Assembly: GCA_036785375.1 (NCBI GenBank)
Contig: JAWMAR010000755.1
Coordinates: 558,001 to 622,000, forward strand
DNA length: 64,000 bases
Origin: Leucoraja ocellata
Lineage: Eukaryota
Direction: 5' to 3'
This document shows positions 3,450-38,600 of the stretch, one piece after another. Within the stretch, counting starts at the first letter, position 1, and each line of letters opens with the position of its first letter. The position numbers and the translations under genes were made by a program. The notes below the pieces were generated by a model. That model did not search any database. It had not been told where the DNA came from and saw only the letters and a list, made by a program, of their open reading frames with translations.

Positions 3450-4584
3450 CTCATTGGAAGCAGCATCTGAAAATCAACATCACATGAATCATCCCTAATG
3501 CCGATCATTTCTCCAATCGCTCCACAGATCTACAATTCCCCTCCTGCACTATGCCATCCATTAATTTCCTTCCCATCTCTTCATGACATTTTAATAGAAT
3601 GTTGTGTTTGCTTTGTTACCAATTTCCTCTACTGCCTTTTTTGTAACCAATCTCGATATTGACATGTTATCTGTATGGCTGTACGGTGACCACACATTTC
3701 ACTGTACCAACTGGGACATGTGACAAATAAATGTATCTTGATATTGGAATGGACAGTCCCAATATTGTTCGAATGGCTCATATTGATAACAACGAATGTG
3801 TAGGAAAGAACTGCAGATGCTGCTTTAAATGAAGCTAGACACAAAATGCTGGAGTAACTCAGTGGGACAGGCAGTGTCTCTGGAGGTCTGAAGAAGGCTC
3901 TCGACCCAAAACGTCACACATTCCTTCTCTCCAGAGATGCTGCCTGGCCCGCTGAGTTTCTCCAGCATTTTATGTCTACCTAANNNNNNNNNNNNNNNNN
4001 NNNNNNNNNNNNNNNNNNNNNNNNNNNNNNNNNNNNNNNNNNNNNNNNNNNNNNNNNNNNNNNNNNNNNNNNNNNNNNNNNNNNNNNNNNNNNNNNNNNN
4101 NNNNNNNNNNNNNNNNNNNNNNNNNNNNNNNNNNNNNNNNNNNNNNNNNNNCTCCTCTCTCCTCTCTCTCCCTCTCACACACGCAAGCACACGCACACCA
4201 CGAAGCATTTTAATATAAATTTGAGGAATTCCGAACATATTTTACGAAAAACTGCACGATGAGACCAATCTTTCAACCATCTTATTCATCTTATTTACAA
4301 CTATACCGTGAGTTTATATTGTGTAAGGGGCGGATTAGTACGCTGTTTTATTAACCTCGTGTGCATGTGTATCAGTTAATAGATGTGATATCGTGAGTCC
4401 ATCTCGCTGTTGAGTTTGGAGCCGTGTCTCAGCTCCGCCCGCTGCACCACTGGTCCCACCCACAGCCGCGCCCACTTTTGCCGGGTATTTAATTCTCTCT
4501 AAGAGGGGCCGAAGTCCAACTTCCTTGCAGTGGGTTTGTTGCGAGGTTCTGTACAGAAACAACCGGGTCACACTTCCCAGCGGG

Positions 4585-4630
4585 ATGATGTCTGCGGTTT
4601 CACTCAGTCTGTTCCTGGCGTTAATAGTCC
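4585..4630 (+). CDS. IGHV: IgH leader exon (MMSAVSLSLFLALIV + phase-1 base)
   Basis: ATG at 4585, hydrophobic signal peptide, donor C|GTGAGT at 4631; splices in frame to the V exon at 4804. Confidence 0.9.
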
Positions 4631-4803
4631 GTGAGTAATGAGTTGGACAAATTCCTCACGCATTTCTCAGTGCTATATCCCCTACACCATTCCCCTTCTA
4701 CCCACTCTAGAACCCTCACAATTTATTTCCTATTGATAATTAGAGTGGGGGATTCATGGTCAATATTTTATCCTCGCCATTCATGCCTTTTTTTAACTTG
4801 CAG

Positions 4804-5107
4804 GTGTCCATTCCGATGTCGTTCTCACTCAGCCCAAGACAGGGACCGCCGTTCCTGGAGGATCCATCACACTGACCTGTAAAACCAGCGGGTTCACTCT
4901 TAGCAGCACCTATATGTCTTTGGTCCGTCAGGTCCCCGGGCAGGGGCTGGAGTGGCTGCTTCGCTACTACAGTTCTTCTAACAAGCATTTCGCTCCAGGG
5001 ATCGAGAGCCGATTTACTCCGTCCAAAGACAATTCGAATAATATGTTCACCGTGATCGCCAGGAACCTGAAGATCGAAGACACCGCTGTCTATTACTGTG
5101 CGACAGA
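4804..5107 (+). CDS. IGHV: Germline VH segment, IgM type ([11 protein letters not shown]...LTCKTSGF...[12 protein letters not shown]...[10 protein letters not shown])
   Basis: Acceptor TTGCAG at 4798-4803, both canonical Cys, YYC motif, open frame, followed directly by heptamer CACAGTG. Confidence 0.95.
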
Positions 5108-5146
5108 CACAGTGTGAGCATTCAGTGTCAGACCCGTACAACAACG
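5108..5146 (+). promoter_or_regulatory. VH 3' RSS, 23-bp spacer
   Basis: CACAGTG 5108-5114, 23 nt, nonamer ACAACAACG 5138-5146. Confidence 0.9.
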
Positions 5147-5483
5147 GCAACGGTTGGGAAGTCCAGCTTTTACCATCAAAGACTAGAGGTGAGCAATTAT
5201 TTCAACAGCTATAATAACAGTCGGGAAATGGAGGCAAACTACCATTCGCAAATCCAACACGATATTCAAAAATGTAACCAAATGTATGAGGTTTTTTTAT
5301 ATTCGCCTCACGCATACCGATAGCGTTGTGTAAAATCATAGACCACGAAAATATACTCATTCCATAACGCAAGTGAGACGAAGGGAGATTGTTGGTGTTA
5401 TGTATATTTACTGTGTTCTCTGTGAACTGCTGGACCATTTAAAATCGTGTTTCAAATGAAACCTGAGTGTGGACTGTATGTGA

Positions 5484-5562
5484 GGTTTTTGTGCGGGTCT
5501 GTCTCACTGTGTACAACAGGGGGTCACGGTGCTGCAAACAGCGACTTCCTCGTACAAAAACC
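5484..5562 (+). other. IGHD: D1 segment (TACAACAGGGGGT, 5512-5524) with 12-RSS and 22-RSS
   Basis: GGTTTTTGT-12-CACTGTG (5484-5511) and CACGGTG-22-ACAAAAACC (5525-5562). Confidence 0.93.
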
Positions 5563-5814
5563 TGGGCACCTAGTTTTACCCTGCTCCAACCTACAAGCAC
5601 CGTAGGAGAGGCCGTGTGAAGCAAATTCAAATGAATTTTCACCGCTTAAAGTTACATGGATTGTTTCCAGAAATGTCCAACTGTCTTCCGAACAATTAAC
5701 GTTATTTTATATGAGCTTTAGAAGAACAGCGTTTAGCTTTACAAGTGACAGCGAAGAGTCCCCTGGGACATCCATCCTCTGTTAGCTGTACATGCATCAG
5801 TTCTTGAAGAGCGA

Positions 5815-5882
5815 AGTATTTGACATGGCATGTTTCACTGTGTATACTGGATGGCACAGCGGTTCCTACCAATACAAAAACA
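5815..5882 (+). other. IGHD: D2 segment (TATACTGGATGG, 5843-5854) with 12-RSS on both sides
   Basis: AGTATTTGA-12-CACTGTG (5815-5842) and CACAGCG-12-ACAAAAACA (5855-5882). Confidence 0.9.
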
Positions 5883-6209
5883 TCCACAACCCATAATACT
5901 GTGATCTGGGCCAGTATATGATATTTTCAATTGAATATTTCATACAACAGGAGCATAAACATGTCCCGGAATATTTCCGCATATTTTATTGTAGAGGTAA
6001 CTTGAGTTAATTTATATTTTATATGTAGATGATTCTTATCACATTTCACTGCCTGTTTAATACACGGGGCCGTGATATGTGATTATTGTTGGAAATGATT
6101 TTTTTAATGCATTCATTGTTTTCAAAGAGCAATAAGACATTTGCTTTAGATGTGAAATACGAATAATTACAGTATTTTTGTTCTTTTTTTGCCTGCCTTG
6201 TGCAGATCA

Positions 6210-6248
6210 TGTTATTGTGTGAAGAACCCCATAGAATGTAACACCGTG
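6210..6248 (+). promoter_or_regulatory. JH 5' RSS, 23-bp spacer
   Basis: TGTTATTGT 6210-6218, 23 nt, heptamer CACCGTG 6242-6248. Confidence 0.85.
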
Positions 6249-6296
6249 CCTATCTTGACTACTGGGGAGGAGGCACCATGGTGACGGTAACCAGCG
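6249..6296 (+). CDS. IGHJ: JH segment (YLDYWGGGTMVTVTS)
   Basis: WGxGT motif, phase-1 donor G|GTAAG at 6297. Confidence 0.95.
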
Positions 6297-6702
6297 GTAA
6301 GAAACTTCATCCTATTCAGTCTCTAGATGTATCCAGTTGTAATTTTAACCTATATTTCCAATAATTATATTAAATTGTTCTTCTACATTAATTACCCATT
6401 CATTGCAATGTTGGATCGATGTTGCTTTAGAATGTAATGTGATTTTGCTGCAGTGAGATTGCCGATTTAAACGCCTTATGTGCTATGACTTTCGATCCTT
6501 TGACTATGAAGTGGATGCGGTTTAGTTCCAAATTAGTGGAACATTTTGCATCAATTTGCTTTCACTATGCTTTCTAATTGTTTGAGATTGTTGTGGTCCT
6601 TGATCTGCGATGCATCGAACTGTATTTTCTAATCAACAGCGGGTACTTGGTCTCAGTTTGTTTCTTCTCAGCGCATATGAAACAAACATAGTAACGGATA
6701 AA

Positions 6703-6920
6703 ATGTACACAAAAAAGCTGGAGAAACTCAGCGGGTGCAGCAGCATCTATGGAGCGAAGGAATAGGTAACGTTTCGGGCCGAAACCCTTATTCAGTCTGA
6801 AGAAGGATTTCGGCCCGAAACGTTGCCGATTTCCTTCGCTCCATAGATGCTGCTGCACCCGCTGAGTTTCTCCAGCTTTTTTGTGTACCTTCGATTCTCC
6901 AGCATCTGCAGTTCATTCTT
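6703..6920. mobile_element. Palindromic Penelope-terminus-derived insertion with 19-bp target-site duplication
   Basis: ~90-bp inverted arms matching the PLE end at 35199-35292; AAACATAGTAACGGATAAA at 6684-6702 and 6921-6939. Confidence 0.8.
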
Positions 6921-7724
6921 AAACATAGTAACGGATAAATCCTGGGTGTAAAATGTTCAAGTTTTTAAAGTGTATGTATTAATTGGTGAAATCGCCTTGC
7001 CACCTTTCATCCAATCGCTAACAAAACTTGCATGGAAGAAGTAAAAATATCTTGCAGCAAAACACAGAAGTGCAAGGGTCAGGGTTAATTGCGCAGTTAT
7101 ATATCTTGATGTACAATGAATAGGAAGGAATAGTGGATGCTGATTTACGCTGCCGATTGACACAAAGCTGGAGTAACTCTGCCTCTCCCGCTGAGTTACT
7201 CCAACTTGTTTTGTCTATCTTGAAGTACAATGAGTTGGCCATGTGAACCAATGTTACAGCAAAGCTAAGAAAGCAAAATCCGTGAAACGCGATCTATAGA
7301 ATGACAATGTACCGGGTGTACTAGGTACAGAGGAACTGAAGGAAATTCACATTATATGGAAATGTTAATCCACGTGTATTGTGTTATTCATCTTTATTTC
7401 AACAATGATTGGCTCTGTGGTCATTGGAACAATGAATTTCGGTGGTGTTTAGACAGAGATATTTGGATTTTTGTGGAGGTTCAGCAAATTTGTGTATGTG
7501 ATTCAACCCATCGGCGGTATGATTCAGCCGGTCACTGTGGGAGACGATATTGTTGCGCAGTTTGACGTGTTTGTACGTTCAATTCGAGTGGCAGCGACCG
7601 GGTATTTCTGTTGTCCGATTATGTTATTTCAATGAACGCAAAGAAGATATATGTTTAAAAATAAAAATAAGAATATATTACTAGAAATCATAAATAGGAA
7701 CAGTAAATGTTGCAAACGCCTAGA

Positions 7725-8030
7725 GGGTCACGCAGCCTGTGGCGAAAGACAAATCCCATAGAGGGGAGCCGAATGACAAGTTGTAGCGCCAGAGACCAGA
7801 CTTCGTTCCCGAAATCAGGTGCAGACGGTGAGAACTGTGCGTTCTCCCTGTGGTTTCTTACTGGTGCTCAGCTTTCCCCCCACAACCCAAAAGAGTGCAG
7901 GTTTGCAGGTTAAATGGCCTGGGTGATTGACCCGGGTGGGTCGGGGGTGAATGCGATAGTGTGATAACGTGGAACTTGTGAGTGGCCCTGGATTTTGTTG
8001 GCAGAAGTGTCTATTTCTATGCTATACCTC
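7725..8030 (+). mobile_element. Degenerate tRNA-derived V-SINE (HE1-like)
   Basis: Core 'gtgcgttctccctgtggtttc...ctcagctttcccccca...gtgcaggtttgcaggttaa'; related copies at ~38475-38660 (+) and 43680-43875 (-). Confidence 0.55.
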
Positions 8031-8361
8031 TACTGAATTCGCCATGGTTTAGTCCCCCAATGATAGTCGACATGGAAAATGCTTGGTTTTCTCTTTCCAC
8101 AGTTGCTGCCTAACCTAATCTGTTTTATGTCAAAGATCACGATTTTTCCCATTTGGAAAATGCGTTGAATGTATAATGGGGAGATTTCGGAACAGTTGTA
8201 GTTTTGGAATAACGTTTAATCCATGGATTTATTAGAAATAGAATTTGAATCCATGTTTGTCTGTGGCTCCCAATGTCATTTAAACATAAAATGTTTCTCT
8301 ATTTAGTAAATTGCTAATGAAAAATATCAGTTTTACGAATAGTTACGGTAAAAAAAAAGAA

Positions 8362-9770
8362 AAATTGGGAAATAAAATGGAATGTTGGAAACTAAATTTT
8401 CTCTGCTATTTTAGACAATAGACAATAGGTGCAGGAGGAGGCCATTCGGTCTTCGAGCCAGCACCGCCATTCAATGTGATTATGGCTGATCTTCCCCAAT
8501 CAGTACCCCGTTCCCGCCTTCTCCCCATATCCCCTGACTTTGCTATCTTAATTTTAATTATAAAACAGGGTATCTCACTAATCCTTGAACAGAGTGGGAA
8601 TTGAAATCGGTGGCTTAGGGGAGGGTTTGAGTGACGTTCAAATTTACATTTGCATTTATTTAATTAAAACATTGATTTAGCAACATTGTGCATTTTCACT
8701 ATTAAACGTAGACTACTATATGACTTAAAACCTTTTCCTGTTAAAGTCACGAAGCAAACTCAGATATTGTTTTAATAGATTGCAGGTTGTAATTTATAAT
8801 TGGTATATTTTTTATTCGTTTCCTATCGGACAGAGATACAATGTTAATCATTCGTTCTTCAGTGCCGATGACATTGGGAACGTTAACTCGTTTTAAAGAT
8901 GCTGGAAACGGAACTGAGCGTCATTGTATAAACATTCATTTCAATGGATTATTATTGAATTCATTAAGGCAATGGTGCACACAGACAAACATTGAAACCT
9001 GTACCAATTTATTTAATTATGAAGTATTTACATGTTCTTACAATGTATATGCTACATTTAGTTTCCAGAAGGTGTGGTACATAACCTCTATTAATTCAGA
9101 TATTATATTGAGAGAGTTATTTTTAATCCTTATAATGTAATCTCATACATGTGTTTAATCTGGTGTGAATGTAATGTTCTTGTCGGCTGGTTTGCGTTTC
9201 GGAATTTACTTGCAATTACTGTCGGCATACAAATGATCGGTATATTCTCGTGAGTGATGGGCCCACAAAATACAAAAAAACGTGTGTTATTTTAAGTGTG
9301 TTATTTGTTGTTAAATAACAGAGCTACCATTTCAATCCCATCCACCCCCTTAGTTGGTTTCGTCCGATGGACACATTTAAGGCCAAATTTCACGAACAAG
9401 ATTGTGATTGTTTATTTTTGTCTTCTCCCAAATTATGTTCGGGAGCCCGACATGGAAAACCCGTTACCCTTCCATTTTCTGTGATTTTGTCAGATAATCT
9501 CTGAACACATTTATAAAACAAAAACTCTTCCCTCTCCCTCCAAATCAAAAGTTTTGCCATGGGCATGCACAGTGGCCCAAGCGAAACCTACCTAAATTAT
9601 TTAATTTTAATTAAATAAATGCAAATGTAATTTTGAACGTCAGTCAAACCCTCCTTTGAACCATTGATTCCAATTCCCACTGTTCACGGATTAGTGGGAC
9701 AACTGTTCTATAATTCAAATAGCAGAGAAAATGTTGTTTCCAACATTGCGCATCATTTCACCAATCTCCA
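8362..9770. repeat. Diverged inverted repeat pair (~170-bp arms) in the J-Cmu1 intron; candidate enhancer
   Basis: 8362-8670 (minus a CR1 insert at 8412-8550) is the reverse complement of ~9604-9770; octamers at 8648-8655 and 9619-9626. Confidence 0.8.
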
Positions 9771-9774
9771 TTTA

Positions 9775-10235
9775 GTTGGGTACATGGAACAACCCATGAC
9801 ATAGACTGGCCCCTATCCCCGAACTCTTCATCCTGTACCCAGACAGAACTCATTGACTTCATTGTCTACAAACTTTGACCATAGATCAAATTCACCGGGT
9901 CCATCCCCAACACATACCTCCTCTTTGTTGATCTCACCGTCTCCATCGCAGGAGTTAGACTATCGACTGACATAAATTGCAAATCTACGGACTCCCACAG
10001 CTATCGGGACTTCACCTCTTCCAACCTTGCCTCCTGCAAAGGCTCTATGTCCTACTCCCAAATTCATCCGTCTCCGTGCAACTGTTCCCAAGACGAGTTG
10101 TTCCATACCAGGATATCCGAGGTCCTCATTCTTTAGGGAGCGGGTATTCCCCACTTTTACCATAGACGAGGCTCTCACACGTGTCTACACTGTATCCTGT
10201 AGTTCCGCCCTTACTCCATCATCCCCAGTTGCAAC
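9775..10235 (+). mobile_element. Penelope-like RT remnant
   Basis: Degenerate coding similar to PLE RT (FVDLTVS...TDSHSY). Confidence 0.6.
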
Positions 10236-10537
10236 AAGGAGTTTGGTGAGATTGTAACCCATAGGCCAACGTTAGTTATAGCCACTGAGTATTGAGCATT
10301 CCTGAGAAACCCTGGGAATTTGACAGTAATTAATACTGGAGGCCTATCGATATATTTCCAACTCTAATATGGACAGTAACTGGCAGATATTGGCACCCCA
10401 AGAAGTTTTCAGCCAATGTTTTCCAAGGTGGGATCAAGGCGGAATGATTAGCTAATAGTTGATGATACTCGGGTGAAGTTGCATGAAATAGAAAACTGGT
10501 TAACGAGTTTAACATTCATGTGGCCTTTGCCTTGCAG

Positions 10538-10834
10538 CGGCTCAATCCCAGCCCAGCCTCTTCATTCTCTTCACCTGTGAGGATCACGGCTCCAGTGGTT
10601 CGTTCACCTACGGTTGTTTGGCGTTGGGCTATTCCCCTGCGGGCGCCAGTGTTTCTTGGAAGATAGATGATAAAGAACTGACCACCGGAGTGAAGGACTA
10701 CCCAGCAGTGTTCAATAAGTTGGGAACTTACACCCGGAGCAGCGAGTTAACCATCACCGAGGCGGAGGCAGGGACAGGCGACATCTTCTGCGTGGTTCAG
10801 CACAACCAAAAAGACTATGTAGAGAAAGTACCAG
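10538..10834 (+). CDS. IGHM: IgM Cmu1 exon
   Basis: Acceptor TTGCAG; AAQSQPSLFILFTC...YGCLALGYSP...VSW...IFCVVQH; extra N-terminal Cys in the light-chain-bonding position; donor G|GTTCGT. Confidence 0.88.
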
Positions 10835-10874
10835 GTTCGTGTTGGGGTGCAGTGCGAGGCCGAGGGTGGAGTTG

Positions 10875-11310
10875 AGAGTCGAGTCAAGAATGTTTTATTG
10901 TCATATGTCCCAGATAGAACAATGAAATGTTTACATGTACACATGCACACATACTCAAAACAAACAATAACAGTGCAATAATGATAATAATAATAATAAT
11001 AGTCTATTGTAGTTCAGAGCATATGAGGTTATAGTGTTTAATAGCCTGATGGCTGTAGGGAAAAAGCTGTTCCTGAACCTGGACGTTACAGTTCTCAGGC
11101 TCCTGTACCTTCTTCCAGTGGTGAGGTGAGTGTGTGGGCAGGATGGTGTGGGTCTCTGATGATGTTGGCTGCCTTTTGGAGGCAGCGACTCCGATACATC
11201 CCTTTGATGATGGGGGGTCCGAGCCGGTAATGGATTGGCCAGTGGTTACAACATTTTGCAGCCTTTTCCGCTCCTGGATGTTCCCGAAACAGGCCATGAT
11301 GCAATCCATA
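10875..11310 (-). mobile_element. Rex1/Babar-like LINE 3' fragment
   Basis: Similar to 1300-2300; frameshifted ORFs 11004-11330. Confidence 0.7.
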
Positions 11311-12105
11311 TAATCCGCGGGATTTGACAATTGGCGATAAGTACTTGACTTAATGTGCCCTGTTCGGTTTTATTCTTCATGTCATACTGACTGTCGAACG
11401 CTCATCTGAGCTCCACGATCCAACAAGTCAAAGACAGACAATTCATGTCGATACAGTGATGTGAAAGTGTGGCTGCATCCACAGATGCCATGTAACATCT
11501 GGAACACTGATAAAACTCCATTCTCAATTTAACTACCAAAGGCTTAAAGTCTCAATAGAAAGTGACACATGCCTTATCCGCCAAATTATTCCAGCCCTTT
11601 GCTTATTTTTTTAATCAAACAACATCTGCTGTTGTTGTTTCGATAAAACGGTGAGTTTTGTTTCCTGGCACCGAGGGGCGAGAGCGATATTCATAATACT
11701 GAAGCACTATCGTTCGTTCTTGTGACGGAACGAAAGGCAGTGCTTCAAATATCGAGACAATTCACCATCTACAAAATCATAAAAAAACAAAAATGTACTT
11801 GTAGAGAGCTTGAAAAGAACTGATTAATGTATTATCATCACCAGCACATCCATATAATTTGTGAGGAACTGATCTATCCATAGATAGGTTACATTTTAAC
11901 TCGCGAACAATCGAAGCGGCTGAGTGCATCATGTTGAGAACATTATCAAGAGTATTAAAAGCACAGACACAGTCACAGAGAACAAAAGCAGAAGTCGGCC
12001 CCATCACATCCCTGTGACAACAACTTACCGAGCTATAATGTCCACATTTACGAGCACTCGATGTACCGCGATGAACAAATAATTTAGCAGCATCTCGGGA
12101 AGTCC

Positions 12106-33621: not shown

Positions 33622-35600
33622 GGGTGGTCTTCCTCGCCACCACGTCGTTCTGTGCATCAAACCGGGCGTAGAACATGTTCAGCGCATCAGGCAGAGATAC
33701 ATCGCTGTCACAGGCTGGTGTTGATGTCCTGAAGTTGGTGATGGCTTGGATGCCTTGCCACAGCTTCAGTGTGTCCCTGCTGTCACTGAAGTGGCCGTGG
33801 ATTTTCCTTGCATGCGCTCGCTTTGCTTCCCTGATGGCCCGGGACAGTTTGGCCCTCACTGTTCTCAGGGACTCCTTATCGCCTGCTCTGAAGGCCGTGT
33901 CTCGGGCTCTCAGCAGCGCACGTACCTCTGCAGTCATCCATGGTTTACTGTTGGGGACGTGTGGTGATGAGCTCAGTGACAGTAATGTCATCAATGTATT
34001 TACTGATGTAACCAGTCACTGATGCCGTGTACTCCTCCAAGCCAGTGGTGCCTCCCTAAACATGTGCCAGTCAATGCAGTCCTGGAGAGCAGAGATGGCT
34101 CCTGCTGGCCAGGTCTTCACCTGTTTTTTAGCTGGTCTGGAGCATCTGACAAGCAGTCTGTATGCTGGGATCAGCATGACAGAGATGTGGTCTGAGTATC
34201 CGAGATGGGGGCGTGACTACACCCTGTACGCGCTGGGCATATTGGTGTAAACAAGATCTAGCACCTTCTCCACTCTCGTTGCAAAGTCCACATGTTGGTA
34301 ACATTTAGGAAACACAGTTTTGAGATTTGCACGGTTGAAATCTCCTGCGGCAATAAACAGTCCTTCTGGGTGTGTGTATTGTAGATTGCATAAAGCTCCA
34401 TACAGTACAGTACAGCTAGTGGTTCCTTAGCATTAGCACTGGGGGGGATGTGAACAGCAACAATGAGCACTGTGGTAAACTCCCGTGGCAAATAAAAAGG
34501 TCTACATCTCACAATCGCATTCTCCACCAGCAATGAACAGAACTTGGAGACTAAGACAGAGTTGTTGCACCAGTCAGTGTTGATGTAAACACACAGGCCA
34601 CCACCTCGAGTCTTACCGCGCAACTTCCTTATCAATTCTTCCCTTCCCTCCCGCACCACCCCCTCCCCGGGCACTTTCCGTTGCAACCGCAAGAAATGCA
34701 ACACCTGTCCCTTCACCTCCCCCCTCGACTCCATTCAAGGACCCAAGCAATCGTTCCAGGTGCAACAGAGGTTCACCTGTATCTCCTCCAACCTCATCTA
34801 CTGCATCCGCTGCTCTAGGTGACAGCTGATTTACATCGGGGAGACTAAACGTAGGTTGGGCGATCGTTTCGCCCAACACCTCCGCTCAGTCCGCAATAAC
34901 CAACCTGACCTCCCGGTGGCTCAGCACTTCAACTCCCCTTCCCATTCCCAATCCGACCTCTCTGTCCTGGGTCTCCTCCATTGCCAGAGTGAGCAACACC
35001 AGAAATTGGAGGAACAGCACCTCATATTCCGCCTGGGTTGCTTGCGTCTGGATGGCATGAACGTTGAATTCTCCCAGTTTTGCTAGCCCATGCAGTCTCC
35101 TCCCCTTCCTTAACCCTCGAGCTGTCTCCTCCCATCCCCCCGCCCTTGGGCTCTTCCTCCTCCCTTTATCCTTCCTTCTCTCCCCCACCCCCCATCAGTC
35201 TGAAGAAGGGTTTCAGCCTGAAACGTCGCCTATTTCCTTCGCTCCATAGATGCTGCTGCACCCGCTGAGTTTCTCCAGCATTTTTGTGTACCTGTGATGG
35301 GTCTCTGTCGGCTCGGTGCGAGACTAGCCCGGCTAGCTGAATGGCCACGTCCGGGACTCGATCGTTGAGCCATGTCTCAGTAAAACACAGACACAGCAGT
35401 CCCTAGTCTCTCGCTGTGTACTCCTCTGTAGTTGGATGTTGTCCAGTTTGTTTTCCAGGAAGCGGACGTTGGAGAGTAGGATAGATGGGAGAGCTGGCCG
35501 GCCAGCTAGCATTATCTCTCAGCCTAGCACGGACACCCTCTCTCTTGCCCAGTTTCTGCCTCCTCTTTGCCTGCCCAACCTGGCCCTGAGCTCAGGCCCT
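33622..35600 (-). mobile_element. Rex1/Babar-like LINE endonuclease region, split by a Penelope insertion
   Basis: [28 protein letters not shown]. Confidence 0.75.
34618..35292 (+). mobile_element. Penelope-like element 3' part (GIY-YIG domain + terminus)
   Basis: NLIYCIRC..IYIGETKRRLGDRFAQH...LEEQHLIFRLG; CTGAAGA...GAAACGTC terminus. Confidence 0.85.
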
Positions 35601-38600
35601 TCGAATCCTTGTCGTTAAAAGTATTGCTGTGAGATTAAGGGTGTGATGAAGATGGTGGGAGATTTTGAATCATTAGTGGTGTATTAATTTGAATTGTCTG
35701 ACTTTGTCAATCTGTCAGGACCTGAACTGTATGGAGATGGGATGCAGGTAAGGACCTTTTTAGAACCACCTCTGGTTTCAGACCGATAAATGTTTGGAGG
35801 AGAAAGTATTTTCCTGATTATTGTTGGTTTAAAATACTAGAATTCACGGTGCTGGAATCATGAGGGAGAAAAAAGTCTGCTGGAGTAAACCAGTGGGTCA
35901 GGCAACATCTGGAAGGAATGGACCAATGAAGTATCAGGTCAGAAGCCTTCAGCTTGATGGAGTAAAGGGAGAAAGCTGGAAATGTGAGGTGGGGCAATAG
36001 TCTAGCAAGTGATGGCTGGATGCAGGTGGGGGGGGGAGAGGAAATTGCCAGATGGGTGGAACACCAAAACATCAAGTACTGCCCAGGTGAGGTCAGCCAC
36101 GTGATTTTACCAGGTTGTATGGAAAACAAAGCATTTCATTGTTTCACATGGTACATGTGACAAAAAATAATTGAATCAGTAAGTAACAAAGGCTAAAGGT
36201 GTAAAAGTCAAAGTCAATTGTATTCGTTAGATGCACCCAAAGGTGCAGTGAAATAAATTTGCCAGCAGCGATACACTTAAAAAGAACACACAATACACAA
36301 TAGAATTTAACACAAAACATCCAGCACAGCATTCTTCACTGTGGCGAAAGGCAACAAGGTTCAGTCAGTCCTCCTCCTTTGTTCATCCGTGGTCGGGGCC
36401 ATGAACCCTCTGTCATCGCCGCTATGATTTATGAATATCTCAGAAGGAGAAAGCAAGGTGTGAACTGTAAACCTGGTAGAAGGAATATGAGTGCAATGGG
36501 ATAGGATGTGGAAAAGGGATGAATGCACTGAGGACTCTCCCTTTCCCCGCATCACCCATTCACCCGGCACCTTCCCCTCTTTCCACACTCATCTCCCATC
36601 CCTGACATTCATCTTTGCCTCTTTACCCTTCGACCCATATCCCGCCCTCCAGCTTCACATCTCTCTGTCTCCTCATCTAAACCTTTTGTCTCCTCTTCAC
36701 CTCTCGCCTTTGTCATTGCTCCAAGTGCCAATTGCTTGTATTTATTGTCTGAAGGACAGCCTCTACCTGAAACATCACCCATTCCTTCTCTCCCAAGATG
36801 CTGCCCGTCTCACTGAATTACTCCAGCATTTGTGTCTATCCACATCACTTGCCAGCTTTTGTCCTGCTCCCACATCTTTCCAGATTTCTCCACTACTCTC
36901 TCAGTCTGAAGGATCCCAAACTGAAACATCTGTCCGGCAGATGGTGCCTGACCAACTGTGTACATCCAGCATTCTTTGTAGACTTCTTTATATTCCCTAA
37001 AGTAATTCTAGTTGGTTCCTGTTGCAGTGAAAGTAGTTTAGTGTTCATGACACTTGTTTTAAGTGTCAATACAAATTAAGTAATCCTGCATTCCATTCAC
37101 CATACTGTTTTTTTTGGAATAGGTCTAAATCTATTTGGTTTAGTATGTTTGTGTCAGTGTTGCCAGAATACATCTCCTCTCCCCTCTGCTCTTTTCTGAA
37201 GGTGTGACCAAATTGTGTTCATTTCCACGAAGGATCTCCAAAGACTGGAATCTCTGCTTTTTATTTTAATATTTATTTTATTAGAAGCAATTGTACAAGG
37301 AGAAAGTCATCGACATAACAATTATAAAATGTTCGTAAGCTTCAATTTTAACATTTTATGAACTAAAAACTAAATCGGAAAAAAGAAAAATGAAAAGAAA
37401 GGAAAGGAAGAAGAAAAGAAAAAGAAAAGAAAGAATTTTGTAAAAGACACGAAAGATAAAAAAGAAAAACCTCTGAAACAACGAAAAAGTGAAAAAAGTG
37501 GAGATTTATCCCACTATCCTTCCCTACGCCCGATCACCCGACCCTAGCGTCGGTTTTCAATGGAAGGAGGTTTTCAGGTGTAAGGGGACGGGAGGGGATA
37601 AAAGGAAATGAGATTTGGAGATGGGAATGAGCGTATTGATTAAGGGAAACCCCCTCTTTCCCTGCACTCCCCACCCTGGTGTGCACCTCACTCAACGGTC
37701 TCCCTACCCCTTCCCCTCCTCTGTATACTCATCCCTGTCCCACATTCCCCTCTTTCCCCGATCCTTCCCCCTGGCTTTGCATGACACCTCTCTTCCCCTT
37801 GTTTGACACTCGTCTCCTCTTCACCTCTAGCCTTTGTCAGTACTCCACAATCTGCTAATCAGCCCCCAACTGTATCCAGAATCACTCACCAGGCTCTGCC
37901 CTGCTCTCGTCTCTTTCCAGCTTTCTCCCAAATACATCAGTCTGAATCAGCATCAGAGAATCAGAATGCTGTTTATTGTCATTGAAACATAGGTTCAAAC
38001 AAAATTACTTTCCTGCAGTCATAACAACAACAAAAAAACACACAATGAACACAATTCCACACAAACATCCATCACAGTGAATCTCCAAATACCTCCTCAC
38101 TGTGATGGAAGGCAAAAGTCTTATCTCTTGCCCACAGTCAAGCAGTCAAACTGCTGCATCGAGCTGATCGAGGCGCTTGATGTTAGAGGCCCCGGTGGGT
38201 AATGGTAAGTCCTGCGGCTGTTTAAGCCGCGCCAGGTGATGTAAGGCCCCGCTCCGGGTCGATTTATACCCCTCGATTCGGGCGGTCAAAGTTTGCCGTT
38301 GTGGATGATTAGCCATGATCACAGTGAATGGCGGTGCTGGCTCGAAGGGCCGAATGGCCTACTCCTGCACCCATTGTCTATTGTCTCAGGATCTAGTCTT
38401 TATGGAGATGACGTTAAGGTAAGGCCGCTGTTTTATAACCCTCTCTTGGGTTTCAGTGTTTGTGGAAAGATTGGGCAGCACAGTGGTAGAGTTGCTGCCT
38501 CACAGCACCAGATACCTGGGTTTGAAACTGACACCATGTGTTATCCGTACAGAGTTTGAATACTCTTCCTGTGACCAAGTGTGTTTTCCACATATGTTCT

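Follow-up and report, generated by a model that had tools for sequence, protein, structure and literature searches.

A mirrored octamer block in the J–CH1 intron of a skate IgM cluster: an old, locus-confined inverted duplication and enhancer candidate

Introduction

The core of the mammalian intronic heavy-chain (IgH) enhancer Eμ consists of clustered E2A-type E-boxes together with Ets/PU.1 sites. Eμ has one octamer, located outside its core (PMC1800861), and its MARs are ATC-rich (PMC1852116). A skate IgM cluster within the 64,000-nucleotide stretch of DNA analysed here (the window) contains an inverted repeat that resembles Eμ in its position in the J–Cμ intron, its consensus octamer and its A+T-rich surroundings. 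Conversely, the skate repeat has two mirrored octamers and no CAGSTG or GAGGAA site in its arms or spacer, whereas Eμ has no inverted repeat. As the E-box/Ets core is absent from it, the skate repeat is not classed as Eμ.

An inverted duplication in an IgH locus is also found in the mammalian 3′RR palindrome (hs3a – hs1,2 – hs3b). In human, its arms of ~3 kb at 94% identity surround hs1,2, and in mouse hs3 is duplicated on both arms (PMC3068965, PMC9936319), each of which carries an enhancer copy (hs3a, hs3b). Unlike the skate repeat, that palindrome lies 3′ of Cα, spans 25 kb in mouse and has a maintained self-match. The parallel to the 3′RR drawn in an earlier note on this DNA is a poor fit, given decaying arms of 0.19 kb at 80% in a J–C intron as opposed to ~3 kb at 94%; it is an analogy at most, and no homology is claimed.

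Among fish, a related case is the channel catfish Eμ3′ enhancer, an IgH enhancer with two octamer motifs, both of them variants, in a core located 3′ of IgM (PMC1800861). It differs from the skate repeat in this position, in combining variant octamers with a μE5 site and in lacking inverted arms. With regard to origin, staggered breaks are described to produce inverted duplications of unique sequence, and the corresponding inversion breakpoints in Drosophila resemble the skate repeat in that unique sequence stands in a decaying inverted duplicate (~88% mean identity) round a segment (PMC1885836), although the Drosophila inversions are large and the skate spacer measures 0.9 kb. Non-autonomous TIR DNA transposons (MITE/Tc1-like derivatives) likewise have two inverted arms round a non-coding middle. 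In contrast to these, the skate repeat lacks dispersed copies at 80% likeness as well as a transposase remnant, and neither a terminus nor a target duplication can be read in it.

Much of the work on shark immunoglobulins appeared in subscription journals and older papers. In a literature search that covered few subscription papers or older scans, we found neither a published enhancer nor a report of this repeat for the IgH introns of sharks and skates, and passages of two reviews (PMC3308330, PMC6795676) mention neither. Shark IgH promoters are reported to lack an octamer and the clusters to be activated singly or in small numbers, and a promoter–enhancer complex in limiting supply has been proposed for them (PMC2435157). 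As the many small IgH clusters of sharks and skates open independently and lack a promoter octamer, each would have to carry its own B-cell switch. The same search returned no published location for this switch in a shark or skate cluster; a cluster-confined candidate of 1.2 kb with two octamers makes the question assayable. It also bears on whether a J–C intron enhancer predates the split between cartilaginous and bony fish, the teleost enhancer being located 3′ of Cμ.

Results and discussion

The host locus

The window locus is a cartilaginous-fish IgM (mu-type, four-domain) IgH cluster, in which the features of such a cluster are all present: V-D-D-J, four C1-set exons, a secretory tail and a TM exon. 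The frames of the cluster match one V-set and then four C1-set domains, and RSS were located at 5108 (V), 5511/5525 and 5842/5855 (D segments) and 6248 (J). CH1 is 93% identical to a named Amblyraja radiata protein (one of two hits among 91 candidates), and mapping of both matching proteins placed CH1 at 10537–10833, CH2 at 12656–12970, CH3 at 14385–14690, CH4 at 16463–16873 and TM at 19991–20128. For the last C exon and the tail, IgM constant regions were the best match among solved structures. Two features delimit the intron under study:

6250..6297, forward strand: J segment with its RSS at 6248 and a donor site; the intron starts behind it
10539..10834, forward strand: mu-type CH1 exon with a C1-set match and a spliced contig edge at 10537; it ends the intron

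From the J donor to the CH1 acceptor the intron comprises positions 6298–10538, which together with the mu-type C exons bears out the placement of the repeat in a J–Cμ intron by the earlier note. Its remark on an octamer-less promoter also agrees with the sequence: the 439 bases 5′ of the leader (4152–4590) contain no octamer at up to one mismatch, in a view limited by an N gap at 3984–4151.

The V exon (4806–5108) is open. Trp is the usual residue at one position of V framework 2, where this exon has Leu, and the V may be impaired. Within window positions 4152–20000, the CpG o/e ratio reaches 0.76–0.86 in V–J, the first intron and CH4–TM, compared to 0.35–0.46 outside the cluster, and low germline methylation across the whole cluster is a possible reading. 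CpG retention at o/e 0.80–0.86 is therefore not distinctive, as V–J shows 0.79 and CH4–TM 0.76.

Structure of the inverted repeat

The inverted repeat in the J–CH1 intron is real and old. It is composed of the following elements, listed with the insert in its left arm and the remnant that adjoins its right arm:

8355..8411, forward strand: left arm, outer part; pairs with 9717–9773
8412..8549, reverse strand: 3′ end fragment of a CR1-type LINE inside the left arm; 83–91% identical to other copies in the window, depth 7–10 million, loose contig ends at 8412 and 8549
8551..8680, forward strand: left arm, inner part; GTGGGAA at 8594–8600, CRE half-site at 8632–8637, variant octamer at 8642–8649, consensus octamer at 8648–8655
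8620..8669, forward strand: best-kept arm block with CRE half-site and octamer; 48 of 50 columns matched
8681..9591, no strand assigned: spacer; A+T content 65%, nothing above threshold in Pfam or Rfam, internal symmetry not above the level of chance
9592..9773, reverse strand: right arm; octamer at 9619–9626, CRE half-site at 9637–9642, TTCCCAC at 9674–9680
9774..10240, forward strand: decayed, Penelope-like retroelement remnant; broken frames, depth 6,000–17,000, adjoins the right arm and hides its outer end

The two diverged inverted arms proposed earlier are thus confirmed, at ~185 bp each and with inner ends 911 bp apart (935 bp for the ungapped core). Over the whole repeat, 149 of 185 columns are paired (~80%). 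The inner arm (8551–8680) aligns to the reverse of 9592–9720 in 109 of 132 columns with a local score of 162, while 100 shuffles gave a mean of 28.9 and a maximum of 44; the outer arm (8355–8411 against 9717–9773) contributes 44 of 57 columns and a score of 62, compared to a shuffle maximum of 30. No match above shuffles extends the arms outward past the retroelement or inward into the spacer. Ten inverted hits within 3 kb were detected in the window, among which only the two arm pairs have no further copy there. The Penelope-like label of the remnant at 9774–10240 was given from its translated motifs.

A CR1 fragment in reverse orientation interrupts the left arm; the right arm is continuous and lacks it. 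The insertion therefore came after the duplication, which confirms the sequence of events in the earlier note. In folding calculations the inner-arm duplex reached −144.6 kcal/mol compared to −35.7 ± 4.4 kcal/mol for shuffles; a strong duplex is to be expected, as any inverted repeat can form a stem.

The same intron contains a second palindromic repeat of 190 bp at 6702–6891 (93% self-match), with related pieces at 3796–3981, 35195–35293 and 36747–36838. It has the character of a dispersed, MITE-like element, unlike the arms studied here. No Rfam match at gathering level was obtained in the stretch of the repeat; two hits there, with E-values of 0.04 and 0.08, were at the level of chance and far below gathering.

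Copy depth and distribution

The region 8541–10875, or part of it, is contained in 20 of 24 listed public runs (nine studies, three coded organisms), and contigs of four of the 24 were aligned to positions 8000–10880 at 80% likeness. Summed depth is not a copy number and is read here as orders of magnitude only. In DNA run X5, median depths were 1167 for the left arm, 797 for the right arm, 648 for the spacer, 1206 for the 5′ flank, 501 for the 3′ part of the intron and 774 for CH1; the Penelope-like remnant reached 14,683 and CR1 8.5 million. Run X17 from organism C gave depths of 50 for each arm, 22 for the spacer, 41 and 51 for the flanks, 497 for the remnant and 775,000 for CR1. Retroelement remnants of one and the same stretch thus show a 20- to 10,000-fold excess in depth, the arms none over their flanks. 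As the arms share the depth of spacer, flank and CH1, they are not widespread transposon ends, in a comparison that a few dispersed copies, or copies less than 80% alike, would escape. Transposon copies would be expected to differ as the arms differ mutually (12–17%, inner part) and should therefore have aligned at least partly; such alignments are absent. A wide occurrence of the arms as TIRs outside Ig loci, which the earlier note had named as a finding that would refute its reading, is not what the two runs display: arm depth equals cluster depth, four orders of magnitude below CR1.

Within X5, 13 of the 15 listed contigs that bear joints have a depth of 27–36, contigs near-identical to the window have ~355, and per-site totals amount to ~430–760 on arms and CH1. 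Contig depths set against these totals correspond to some 10–20 clusters, which suggests that the repeat travels with roughly that number of IgM clusters. Scanning metagenomes for the introns of other species returned 0 matches to the arm motif and 277 CH1 candidates, none of them confirmed.

Two local irregularities of the depth profiles should be noted. In X17, CH1 is almost uncovered at 80% likeness (window positions 10522–10715) and the intron is covered at ~96%, due to either a hole left by the filter or a fast-changing CH1. In X5, the depth at 8000–8193 is 1570–2827, above that of arms and CH1, perhaps because of a repeat present in few copies or of numerous short contigs with variants.

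Age and decay of the arms

Of 180 aligned sites, 31 differ between one arm and the other (17%, K2P 0.20), with 16 transitions, 15 transversions and 5 gap columns. Both parts of the right arm, the outer part of the left arm, the spacer and the 5′ flank are represented in contigs that diverge from the window by 8–12%; no single contig reaches from one arm to the other. As the divergence of the arms exceeds that of these paralogues, the duplication would predate the subfamilies, provided that rates are even. The CR1 junction was also detected in organism C, on a contig that reaches 36 letters into the insert. Taken together with the depth data, the repeat is an old inverted duplication confined to the locus. 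Its multiplication along with the IgM clusters came after the insertion of CR1.

Sharing of the repeat among clusters shows descent and not function, since the CR1 and Penelope-like remnants are common to the clusters in the same way. Organism C differs from the window at 21 of 581 spacer sites, 5 of 200 sites of the retroelement remnant (P = 0.65) and 10 of 197 sites of the 5′ flank (P = 0.40), the organisms being too close for a difference in rate to emerge. Unitig ends shared by subfamilies at 9323–9352 and ~9593–9623 suggest identical 30-mers; as a sign of conservation these were rejected, because 0.9^30 = 0.04 per site makes them ordinary. Among the 40 of 403 variant rows listed, two fall into the arms (8575 and 9750), and in both cases other copies pair where the window copy is broken. 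Arm pairing thus appears to be decaying, at least in the window copy.

Motif content

All motif coordinates of the earlier note proved right: the octamers stand at 8648–8655 and 9619–9626, TGACGT at 8632 with its mirror at 9637–9642, and GTGGGAA at 8594–8600 with its mirror at 9674–9680. Of the "CRE-like" motif, the TGACGT in both arms holds; it is a half-site only and not the full CRE palindrome. The variant octamer at 8642 overlaps the left consensus octamer. No consensus octamer other than the arm pair occurs between V and CH3. Five octamers were counted in the window compared to 4.0 expected, two of them being the arm pair and two a single site that recurs in the duplicated C region. Shuffling produced at least one octamer in 37% of 500 trials for the whole intron and in 2% of 5000 trials for a 198-base arm.

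The argument that motifs were kept while neighbouring bases differ could not be upheld, as the octamer is embedded in a perfect run of 26 bases and 47 of 178 arm 8-mers are intact in both copies. Permutation of the mismatches gave P = 0.17 for retention of the octamer in both arms, 0.27 for the CRE half-site, 0.21 for GTGGGAA and 0.008 for all three, the last value being post hoc because the motifs were chosen after they had been seen. The longest perfect run has P = 0.08. A best-window scan yielded P = 0.011 for a width of 50 columns (8620–8669, 48 matches), which is the best of three widths, with P = 0.12 at width 40 and P = 0.22 at width 30. Overall, the case for an enhancer from motif retention is mostly post hoc and weaker than claimed, and the scan hints weakly at constraint on the CRE–octamer block.

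A motif scan with commonly known patterns located no CAGSTG E-box (E2A-type) and no GAGGAA (PU.1) site in arms or spacer. Within the intron, CAGSTG occurs only at 7816 and GAGGAA only at 7330, both outside the repeat, and one RRGGAAR is present at 9533 in the spacer. MAR-like ATC runs are spread over the whole intron.

Origin and function

The reading that we favour, at a probability of roughly 0.45, is that an old inverted duplication within the locus copied an octamer block, that this block belongs to the intronic enhancer of the cluster and that the mirror geometry is incidental. One old rearrangement in the J–CH1 intron of an ancestral skate IgM cluster, i.e. an inverted duplication by staggered breaks or template switching, would have copied a block of ~185 bp with the consensus octamer, the overlapping variant octamer and the CRE half-site in mirror image 0.9 kb away. 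Staggered breaks may have produced the skate repeat. Insertion of the CR1 fragment into the left arm came next, and after it the multiplication of the entire intron with the IgM clusters. Oct2 or Oct1 together with OCA-B, of which orthologues are present in sharks (PMC13043367), may bind the block and act on the octamer-less VH promoter ~4 kb upstream, or closer after VDJ joining. The mirror geometry would be a by-product that doubled the site and not a maintained hairpin. Judged from the letters of the locus, an enhancer role of the octamer block is plausible, and the block is a candidate only. It is favoured by the rarity of octamers in shuffled arms (2%), by the peak of identity on the CRE–octamer block, by the confinement of consensus octamers between V and CH3 to the arms, by the octamer-less promoters of singly activated shark clusters (PMC2435157) and by the octamers in IgH enhancers of fish and mammals (PMC1800861). 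The octamer count at chance level in the window, the missing CAGSTG and GAGGAA sites of arms and spacer, the spacer divergence in organism C, the tolerated CR1 insertion in an arm and the teleost enhancer, located 3′ of Cμ and not in this intron, were counted against it. The more far-reaching proposal, which makes the mirrored block the intronic enhancer of IgM clusters in cartilaginous fish, a doubled, inverted Oct module that makes up for the octamer missing from their VH promoters, appears unlikely. If true, the module would be present once per cluster, and the few clusters that open in a B cell could be determined by competition for it; it would also represent an independent origin of an inverted-duplicated IgH enhancer, in parallel to mouse hs3a/hs3b.

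Quite possibly, the same local inverted duplication is neutral, so that a chance 8-mer in an A+T-rich intron was copied a single time and afterwards spread with the clusters as these duplicated. This would fit an octamer count at chance level in the window, the octamers in 37% of shuffled introns, the retention value of P = 0.17 and an ordinary pattern of decay (16 transitions, 15 transversions and 5 gap columns), as well as the broken pairing of the window copy at both listed arm variants (8575 and 9750, among 40 of 403 rows) and the lack of excess conservation in organism C. Against neutrality stand the octamer in only 2% of shuffled arms, the peak of identity on the CRE–octamer block and the consideration that every cluster should need cis-elements of its own. 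A neutral repeat would be an ordinary old duplication.

Clearly less probable is a descent of the arms from the TIRs of a DNA transposon (~1.28 kb without CR1), extinct or with very few copies, that landed once in an ancestral intron. Two inverted arms of ~185 bp round ~0.9 kb do have the shape commonly associated with a non-autonomous element, and neither a target-site duplication nor sharp termini can be read because the outer ends adjoin an A-run and the retroelement, which hide them. Still, two DNA runs showed no excess of arm depth over the flanks at 80% likeness where remnants reached 20- to 10,000-fold, no further copy exists in the window, and no empty-site joint was present among the 15 of 48 joints listed. 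The spacer has no coding remnant either, as all six frames are broken and one 115-aa frame has no Pfam match. Very improbable in our view is that the pairing itself matters, i.e. that a stem in pre-mRNA or single-stranded DNA loops out the spacer, a mechanism that has been put forward for the mammalian 3′RR palindrome, and tunes splicing, AID access or enhancer exposure. The calculated pairing of the inner arms (−144.6 compared to −35.7 ± 4.4 kcal/mol) would permit such a stem, and the mouse 3′RR palindrome affects hypermutation (PMC4757795); on the other hand, the arms are 80% alike compared to 94% in the human 3′RR (PMC3068965), CR1 interrupts the stem, and pairing is lost at the two listed variants.

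Expression data

In raw RNA run X24, arms and spacer were free of reads and CH1 had about one, too few to weigh in either direction. In run X15, which we guess to be RNA, contigs with a depth of 3–7 cover 8828–9622 and 9720–10212, a contig ends at the CH1 acceptor, and none cover 8000–8387, 8582–8775 or 10231–10521. These intron contigs were rejected as evidence for transcription, since their depth is near the assembly floor and pre-mRNA or DNA would explain them.

A second cluster copy

A second, shortened copy of the cluster is located at 45835–56270. It comprises CH3, CH4 with the tail and TM, and lacks V-D-J, CH1 and CH2. With 97–99% likeness to 11224–11699, 13108–17505, 18262–19037 and 19297–22848, it represents a pseudogene or an assembly artefact. 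Just before its left end lies a fragment of 28S rRNA (45564–45707, 137.7 bits), which in turn is preceded by a tandem array at 44421–44971 with periods of 20, 41, 99 and 140 bp.
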